Shown here piece by piece: positions 19,286-20,517 of a stretch of DNA of 64,000 bases. The DNA is taken from positions 145,576,001 to 145,640,000 of the forward strand of contig OX597816.1 in assembly GCA_951406725.2 (NCBI GenBank), in the 5' to 3' direction. Position numbers and translations under genes: made by a program. The notes beneath the pieces were generated by a model, which did no database searches, had not been told where the DNA came from, and saw nothing but the letters and a program-made list of their open reading frames with translations. Each line of letters begins with the position of its first letter. Positions within the stretch are counted from its first letter, which is position 1. The stretch comes from Octopus vulgaris. Lineage: Eukaryota.

Positions 19286-20517
19286 TAAGTAATACTAAGC
19301 AATTAAGGGTTTAGCAACGATGCCTTACCGACACCGAATTTAGAAATAGCAGTCAAAGAGATTATACTATTTCTTCTACTAAAGGAGATCAGTAAAGACA
19401 CAGCATTTGAAAGGCAAACACAAAAGGTAAGAGAATGAATTAACGGCAATCTATCATACAGTTTAAGTCACCTACGGACGTACGTTTCGAGATCAAGTCT
19501 TAGGAAAGCATAAAATTAGATAATTCTACCTTACCCAACTTTCTCATCAGCGCAGGATACAAACAATCATGAATGATTGAATATTGAATTTTGAGATACT
19601 AGAAGGCACCAACTCAACTCAGTATCAGAGCGAGCTAGAAGCCACAGCTAGTATTACCAAATTCAAAGTATGAATGAAAGCTTGTGTACCAGTCCTTCCA
19701 CCGCGTGTAGCCAAGACAAAGTGCTGTGTCATTTACTGGATGAATATGGTTATGAGTAACAATGAGGTGAAATTAATTAATTTGAATAATTATCAATAGT
19801 CTTCGGCTAAAAGCCTCATTCGAGGAAAATTTAAGTAATACTAAGCAATTAAGGGTTTGAACGAATTGCCTTACCGCACACCGAATTTAGAAATAGCAGT
19901 CAAAGATTATAGCTATTCTTCACTAAGGAGATCACAGTAAAGACACAGCATTTGAAGGCAAACACAAACAGGTAAGAAGAATGAATTAACGGCAATCTAT
20001 CATATAGTCACCTACGACGTTTCGAGATCAAGTCTTAGAAAGCATAAGAATTAGATAATTCTACCTACCAGACTTCTTCTCTCATCACGCAGGATATCAT
20101 GAATGATTGAATATTGTTTGAGATACTAGAAGCACCAACTACTCAGTATAGCTGAACCACAGCTAGTATCACCAAATTCAAAGTATAATGAATCTTGTGT
20201 CACCAGTCCTTCCACGCAATCATTCATGATTGTTTGTATCCTGCGCTGATGAGAAGAAGTCTGGTAAAGTAGAATATCTATTCTATCTTTCTAGACTGAT
20301 CTCAACTACGTCCTAGGTGACTAAAACTGTGATGATGCGTTATCATTCTCTACTTTGTGTTGCCTTATGCTGTGTCTGTATCTCCTTATGAGAATAGCTA
20401 TAATCTCTTGACTCTATTCTAATTCGGTGTATCTGCTAAATATTTATATACTATTTCCTCTATGCCGAATCGTGTATTGATAATTATTCAAATTATTTCA
20501 CCTTCATTTTACTCATA
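19286..20517 (-). mobile_element. Hammerhead-bearing tandem plus inverted repeat element (Penelope pLTR-like / retrozyme-like)
   Basis: Unit of ~546 bp (19286-19831), partial second unit (19832-20216) and an inverted partial unit (20217-20517), flanked by (TA)n on both sides. Confidence 0.8.
19471..19556 (-). ncRNA. Type I hammerhead ribozyme motif
   Basis: Minus strand: CCUGCG-CUGAUGA-[long stem II]-GAAA-C-GUAC-G-UC^CGUAGG; stem I is 6 bp with one GU; loop III is palindromic. Confidence 0.8.

Follow-up and report, generated by a model that had tools for sequence, protein, structure and literature searches.

A hammerhead-bearing tandem repeat with an inverted copy in a TA microsatellite of Octopus vulgaris: a probable non-autonomous, Penelope-derived retrozyme

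Results

Organization of the repeat and neighboring features

The stretch of DNA analyzed here (64,000 nucleotides of Octopus vulgaris, hereafter the window) has a GC content of 27-43% in 2-kb steps and contains many microsatellites. A non-coding repeat bordered by (TA)n lies at 19286-20517, downstream of a LINE of the APE-RT type, while two other hammerhead-bearing elements and a fragment of a Penelope-like protein are found farther along the window (Table 1). When 19286-19833 was searched against the window by blastn, a direct copy was retrieved at 19832-20215 (unit 1-416, 84.7%, E 4e-97), together with two matches in opposite orientation: 20430-20217, covering unit 46-294 (E 6e-37), and 20524-20464, covering unit 459-522. 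These matches reproduce the tandem of ~546 bp with an inverted third copy that had been proposed from inspection of the letters alone (hereafter the sequence-only reading), and a separate repeat analysis of the window also recovered the 546-bp periodicity. The array is made of 1 + 0.76 direct units followed by an inverted piece of ~0.7 unit that crosses the unit junction: copy 3 starts at 20217 (unit 294), proceeds down to unit 1 and then from unit 546 to ~459 at ~20517, and is the reverse complement of the contiguous upstream stretch ~19744-20109. The inversion junction, joining unit 416 to unit 294, is non-mirror. Both termini of the array meet (TA)n, and the tract at 19137-19287 is the likely insertion target.

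Table 1. Features at and around the repeat, in window positions.
Feature	Position	Strand	Description
APE-RT LINE	14912-19136	+	ORF1 remnant, ORF2 in three frames; Pfam RVT_1 and Exo_endo_phos; PDB match to LINE-1 ORF2
(TA)n-rich tract	19137-19287		Common to the LINE 3' end and the left terminus of the element; pure (TA)n at 19178-19287
Copy 1, full unit	19286-19831	-	546 bp as assembled, ~585 nt by public contigs; non-coding, 36% GC
Type I hammerhead, intact core	19471-19556	-	Copy 1; predicted cut 3' of 19477
One-sided extension	19744-19831	-	Unit ~459-546; right terminus longer than left by ~88 nt (~100 nt corrected)
Copy 2, 5'-truncated direct copy	19832-20216	-	Unit 1-416; hammerhead ~20011-20093 broken as assembled
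Copy 3, inverted 5'-truncated copy	20217-20517	+	Hammerhead ~20240-20317 broken as assembled
(TA)n(GA)n tract	20516-20579		Right terminus of the element
Third hammerhead family	43188-43330	-	Type I, core 43316-43267, 29-nt helix II; 3' end abuts (TA)n
Second hammerhead family	46849-47475		Inverted arms 46954-47129 and 47300-47475 (96%); ~105-nt one-sided extension; (TA)n at both ends
Protein fragment of an autonomous Penelope-like element	49481-49750	-	28 homologues of 52 candidates; best 63% to a protein with RT + GIY-YIG

None of the six frames of the unit contains an ORF for a reverse transcriptase (RT) or a GIY-YIG endonuclease, and the longest stop-free stretch, measured on a gap-ridden copy, is 54 codons (unit GC 0.36); the element is not an autonomous Penelope element. 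Folded as a circle, with 63% of its bases paired, the unit reached a z of -5.35, and none of 60 shuffles was as good. A second run gave a z of -3.94, while 10 control stretches ranged from -2.09 to +1.33 and the antisense strand reached -2.23; the fold of this run pairs across the unit junction. The inverted duplicate at 19744-20517, if real, would provide a read-through transcript with a double-stranded stem of ~300 bp, a possible small-RNA or editing substrate.

The LINE is near full-length (14760-19136, +), with a Q/T-rich ORF1 carrying two CCCH-like motifs and an ORF2 split by two frameshifts. The repeat had been described as antisense to it and directly downstream of its 3' end: the antisense orientation stands, while the two are separated by 150 bp of (TA)n and independent of each other. 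Adjacency is what speaks for a repeat belonging to the LINE, either as 3' UTR or by 3' transduction, or using it as a partner, an explanation that we regard as extremely improbable, given the opposite orientation and the intervening (TA)n, the recurrence of the LINE 3' end alone at 12870-12971, the lack of any common flank beyond TA repeats among the matches listed, and the fact that no LINE accompanies the other two hammerhead elements, which also lie in (TA)n. A common (TA)n tract is the best explanation for the adjacency.

Three other structures were observed in the window. On the right of the element, 20641-20712 forms a near-perfect hairpin of ~30 bp with a miRNA-like score far under Rfam thresholds, which probably belongs to another repeat (20721-20853 matches 12194-12314 at 71%). 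A stop-free frame at 37764-38348 (-) has no Pfam match and ends in a CxxC-containing stretch that resembles the C-terminus of restriction-endonuclease-type non-LTR elements. Finally, self-comparison revealed a 54-bp perfect inverted repeat pair at 40416-40469 and 40527-40580.

The hammerhead of the unit

A descriptor scan of the minus strand of copy 1 detected a complete type I core cut after 19477, with CUGAUGA at 19550-19544, GAAA at 19488-19485, GUC before the cut and a helix I of 6 bp. The CUGANGA and GAAA boxes, the NUH site and the three helices, with helix I open, are therefore all present in copy 1, and cores with a helix I of at least 6 bp occur by chance 0.05 times per 64 kb (100 locally shuffled windows). 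The sequence-only reading was right on the intact core, on the 6-bp stem I and unusually long stem II, whose span is 55 nt as assembled and 61 nt with six letters restored, and on the minimal stem III, formed by the palindrome ACGUACGU. Closure of this helix III inside a single motif is predicted to cost +1.0 kcal/mol, and the self-duplex of the palindrome with a second copy is valued at -9.8; the palindrome is thus predicted to favor a dimer.

The active fold of copy 1 as assembled lies 7.2 kcal/mol above the minimum. Copy 2 holds better helix II letters than copy 1, and a composite hammerhead carrying six letters from copy 2 has a helix II of -20.6 kcal/mol (0 of 300 shuffles as good) and an active fold 3.2 kcal/mol above the minimum, energies that are favorable partly by construction since the composite was built by picking letters that pair. 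The six restored letters agree with independent contigs from public runs, namely a loose end at 19537, an insertion at 19513, and a contig record (record 21 of run X9) that spans the whole hammerhead (19470-19610) with no other letters and 6 gaps. In the composite, the 61-nt helix II is composed of 4 bp (GAGA/UCUC), a 2x2 purine internal loop, a second paired segment (AAGUCU/AGACUU) and a long capped arm. The sizes found here, 6 bp for helix I and 4 bp for the base of helix II, are those of canonical metazoan motifs (Cervera & de la Pena 2014, PMC4209133), so that the internal loop occupies the usual place of loop 2, and from this position it would make the loop 1-loop 2 contact.

The Rfam models did not recognize the motif: the search of the window returned no hit at gathering level, and the 39 matches at E up to 10 included no hammerhead, the low-stringency matches being chance miRNA-like hairpins only. 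This miss probably stems from the long helix II.

Close to the unit junction (~19800-19826, -), another motif of hammerhead type, non-canonical, with GAAUGA, a GGC/GCC hairpin and a GAA box that some contigs read as GAAA, was rejected by eye, as the deep contigs list no change giving CUGANGA and it has no helix I. It is possibly a relic of an ancestral minimal hammerhead.

Gaps in the copies

The hammerheads of copies 2 and 3 had been described as damaged, and their cores are broken as written, copy 2 being without C3 and without 5 nt at helix III, and copy 3 missing part of the GAAA box; the damage, however, is probably an assembly error. The three copy pairs differ by 2, 7, and 3 mismatches vs. 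33, 50, and 30 gap events, that is 16.5, 7.1, and 10.0 gap events per mismatch, compared to 0.10-1.00 in eight control repeat pairs of the same window treated with the same aligner. Copy 3 is the most deletion-rich part, with 45 deletion events with respect to copy 1. Among the 25 contig records listed, 16 were longer than the window span that they covered, 7 equal and 2 shorter, and many of the extra letters lengthen base runs in comparison with the window. It is the dominance of gaps, together with these extra letters in public contigs, that points to the assembly, and missed bases at inverted duplicates have been reported as a nanopore fault (Spealman 2020, PMC7229812). We therefore consider it likely that long-read errors at the inverted duplicate account for the breaks in the cores of copies 2 and 3. 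Tiling of 9 of the 25 records put the unit roughly at 584 nt; its true length is probably ~585 nt rather than 546, which revises the monomer of ~545 nt claimed by the sequence-only reading.

Two findings go against the error reading: gaps in copy 2 occur also in the spacer, a part that lacks an inverted counterpart, and the runs contain deletion variants. Some gaps may hence be real. That they reflect real decay altogether, in an old insertion whose copies 2 and 3 are truly dead, is in our opinion unlikely; the cores broken as written and the deletion variants among contigs (record 14 of run X5, a 65-nt skip in run X9) would fit such a history, whereas the ratio of mismatches to gaps is reversed with respect to all eight control repeat pairs, and in many cases a gap leaves a base run shorter than it is in the contigs.

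The inverted third copy could also be an artifact, a long read that folded back into a chimera and entered the assembly. The correspondence of copy 3 to the reverse complement of a contiguous stretch and its richness in deletions are in line with this origin, and the contig comparison covered the array up to 19870. A chimera is nonetheless improbable: the junction is non-mirror, a second switch would be needed to regain (TA)n and the unique flank, letters absent from copy 2 are present in copy 3, and a clean element of the same inverted anatomy is found at 46849-47475. Long-read error within a real inverted insertion is the reading that we retain, and it cautions against taking apparently dead copies in inverted repeats at face value, since they may stem from errors in the reads.

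The repeat family in public runs

Twenty-four public runs were listed, of which 20, from five organisms, share a small part (0.07-0.11) of sequence words. Four of the 24 were compared with 19286-19870 (unit 1 plus 39 bp), yielding 852 (X2), 601 (X5), 74 (X9), and 1 (X12) contigs. X2 and X5 are DNA runs from two organisms, in which many variants occur at a summed depth up to 5e5, a depth from which copy number is not readable. The contigs are silent on strand, ends and circles, and those of X9 served only as sequence of other copies. The repeat is a many-copy family. Exact 21-nt patterns taken from the hammerhead and from the 3' part of the unit had no loci in metagenome and genome contigs, nor did the hammerhead pattern in viral contigs.

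Coverage extended to 29 of 30 bins in both X5 and X9. Within 19466-19545 no other letters appeared among the best-supported differences listed. Two X9 records (24 and 25) bridge the head-to-tail point 19743/19744 with at least 40 letters on each side, hence the head-to-tail run is not unique to the window locus, and the depth of X5 at the same point is 4,000-17,000. X2 has no depth at 19706-19765 and its highest depth at the unit 3' end, while the one contig of X12 departs from the unit beyond 19682. The full tandem may therefore be missing in some copies or species, and this keeps alive a rival interpretation, by which the unit, rather than a small element standing on its own, would be only a terminal repeat (pLTR) with the 3' remains of an autonomous Penelope-like element, and the 546-bp period would come from truncated copies in a partial tandem. 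Penelope insertions are reported to be mostly 5'-truncated, giving partial tandems, and the depth peak at the unit 3' end, the empty stretch of X2 and the divergence of X12 would agree with such a remnant. We nevertheless judge it quite unlikely, in view of six frames without an ORF, of the X9 contigs and X5 depth at the head-to-tail point, and of a circular fold that pairs across the junction.

Other hammerheads and a Penelope-like fragment

Two more hammerheads with a long helix II occur in the window, and neither has a blast match to the unit. The element at 46849-47475 bears a type I hammerhead at 47359-47442 (+; core motif 47363-47438) with a 57-nt helix II and a palindromic helix III; its right arm has an intact core (CUGACGA), its left arm a mutated one. 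The hammerhead at 43188-43330 (-), present in one copy in the window, has an 8-bp helix I, a 10-nt palindromic helix III and an active fold 0.6 kcal/mol above the minimum. For the three hammerhead elements, five 3' termini were examined and each of them borders on (TA)n, a sequence that amounts to 994 of the 64000 bases.

The Penelope-like protein fragment is part of a broken element at 49200-49750 (-), corresponds to the RT C-terminal region and lies between microsatellites. The longer frame containing it gave no Pfam match at E 0.01, and self-comparison found no sequence in common between the fragment and the unit; nor did the scans of contig collections described above reveal an autonomous partner with the ends of the unit. 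Its occurrence in the window indicates that such elements are present in this genome.

Discussion

Origin and insertion of the element

We interpret the array as a tandem-plus-inverted insertion, into a TA microsatellite, of a hammerhead-bearing non-coding repeat, that is a non-autonomous Penelope-derived element (non-LTR retrozyme), with a probability of about 0.8; that it is a non-autonomous element of Penelope type in the broader sense is very likely. The retrozyme or Penelope pLTR-like nature advanced by the sequence-only reading thus finds agreement in the type I core, the palindromic helix III, the low-GC tandem, the circular fold and the insertion anatomy. Retrozyme units of 51-972 bp derived from Penelope pLTRs have been described (Li, Clavereau & Pollet 2026, bioRxiv 10.64898/2026.07.22.740005), and Penelope-like insertions are known to form partial tandems, to carry an inverted 5'-truncated copy and a tail of 30-40 bp at one end, and to be biased toward microsatellites (Craig 2021, PMC8557442; Arkhipova 2013, PMC3846280). 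On AT-rich DNA in vitro, both strands are nicked and extended by a Penelope protein, whose cDNA begins at two internal sites spaced by the length of the tail (Frangieh 2024, PMC11167929). The anatomy of the array follows this published pattern and a Penelope RT fragment lies in the same window, from which we infer mobilization in trans.

In the proposed route, a Penelope-like reverse transcriptase/GIY-YIG endonuclease would copy the unit in trans, nicking both strands of the (TA)n target and initiating cDNA internally at unit 1 and at unit ~459, two points separated by ~90-100 nt. The 3' termini observed at these two points are ~88 nt apart as assembled and ~100 nt when corrected, and the resulting one-sided extension (~88-100 nt here, ~105 nt in the 47-kb element) compares with a published tail of 30-40 bp. 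The template would be a multimeric or circular RNA, either uncut or, if a circle, read more than once; one cDNA of ~1.76 units and another of ~0.7 unit, once their ends were joined, would account for the tandem, the inversion and the one-sided tail.

The role assigned to the ribozyme is more conditional. In multimeric transcripts two palindromic helices III may pair, so that the hammerheads would cut as a dimer and free a self-paired monomer of ~585 nt, which a host ligase could close into a circle. Cleavage as a dimer through a palindromic helix III has been reviewed (PMC6765202) and noted elsewhere (PMC3088659). We incline to the view that the family hammerhead cleaves, while for a circle accumulating in vivo we see an even chance. 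Li et al. (2026) regard as active those elements with complete hammerheads in two consecutive units; here copy 1 only is complete as assembled, and the break in copy 2 is probably a read error.

The family could instead be mobile by the Penelope route with the hammerhead as a passenger, uncut linear multimers being the template and neither monomer nor circle accumulating. This is a serious possibility, although we consider it less likely than not. The insertion crosses the hammerhead cut sites unbroken, and Penelope-like insertion in vitro is reported to proceed without need for hammerhead cleavage, the PAc insertion having used unprocessed RNA and cleavage having needed protein (PMC11167929). 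Moreover, cleavage was described in only one of nine Xenopus dimers, the other eight remaining uncleaved (Li 2026, bioRxiv 10.64898/2026.07.22.740005). A passenger, on the other hand, does not sit easily with a core for which the best-supported differences in the runs include no other letters at 19466-19545, nor with the retention of core and palindrome by three unrelated families, and the retrozymes of coral, mussel and axolotl both cleave and form circles (PMC7229834). The retrozyme reading, with cleavage as a probable step, is the one that we carry forward; the element itself offers a small substrate for asking whether cleavage and circles matter for mobility.

Hammerheads with a long helix II in this lineage

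The element is of a known kind, the metazoan non-LTR retrozymes, and its hammerhead is a long-helix-II variant, missed by Rfam, of which 64 kb contain three families. As a new high-copy family of a known kind of element, its main value is modest. The coexistence of a retrozyme unit with a Penelope insertion signature (tandem, inversion, one-sided extension and TA target) supports the hypothetical partnership proposed for Penelope elements and retrozymes. The main text of a paper on Octopus vulgaris repeats contained neither the term "ribozyme" nor "retrozyme" (PMC13282606, term search), and in the literature searched we encountered neither a helix II of ~60 nt in type I motifs nor an octopus retrozyme, though long-helix-II motifs may be shown in Lunse 2017 or in the Cervera 2020 supplement. 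For the giant squid genome, 235 loci of the Rfam hammerhead-1 model are reported (PMC6962438). Three unrelated long-helix-II hammerheads in 64 kb, none of them detected by Rfam, suggest that surveys may undercount ribozymes widely in this lineage. A more far-reaching scenario, which we offer as doubtful, is that several independent high-copy retrozyme families of this animal lineage have replaced loop 2 with an internal loop and a capped arm of 20-50 nt, that they are invisible to Rfam, cleave as dimers and give abundant circles of ~585 nt, and that the arm is either bound by the Penelope protein or acts to switch the RNA between cleavage and retrotransposition.

Comparison with known systems

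The element resembles metazoan non-LTR retrozymes in having a type I hammerhead within a non-coding, low-GC, head-to-tail unit, present in many copies and with a self-paired circular fold; its ~585 nt fall within the 51-972 bp of Li 2026, and Penelope-like elements occur in the same genome. It differs from them in size, circles of 170-400 nt being those tested, and in the 61-nt helix II arm that stands in place of 4 bp and a loop; its expression, cleavage and circles are, in addition, predictions. The axolotl hammerhead HHR_Amex1, for which a dimer is required, has a helix III of a single pair and a palindromic tetraloop (Cervera & de la Pena 2020, PMC7229834), and helix III of the unit has the same composition.

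With the endonuclease-bearing (EN+) Penelope-like elements the array shares the partial tandem, the adjacent inverted 5'-truncated copy, the (TA)n target, the lack of a readable target duplication, and a hammerhead near the 3' end with a palindromic helix III. In contrast to them, the unit has no RT/GIY-YIG ORF, and its one-sided extension, the counterpart of their tail, is ~90-100 nt instead of 30-40 bp. The minimal hammerhead of Penelope, with a helix II of 7-8 bp and a helix I of 4-5 bp, is also unlike the one described here, in which a canonical 6-bp helix I is combined with a 4-bp helix II base and its extension.

The closest parallel to that extension comes from the hammerheads of toad and termite HDV-like RNAs, where a normal loop has likewise become an internal loop capped by an extra hairpin: these are type III motifs with helix I extended by an internal loop and a hairpin (de la Pena 2021, PMC7936874). 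Their helix I, however, is longer by ~20 nt, in a motif with a pseudoknot, whereas in the octopus unit it is helix II of a type I motif that has gained ~50 nt.
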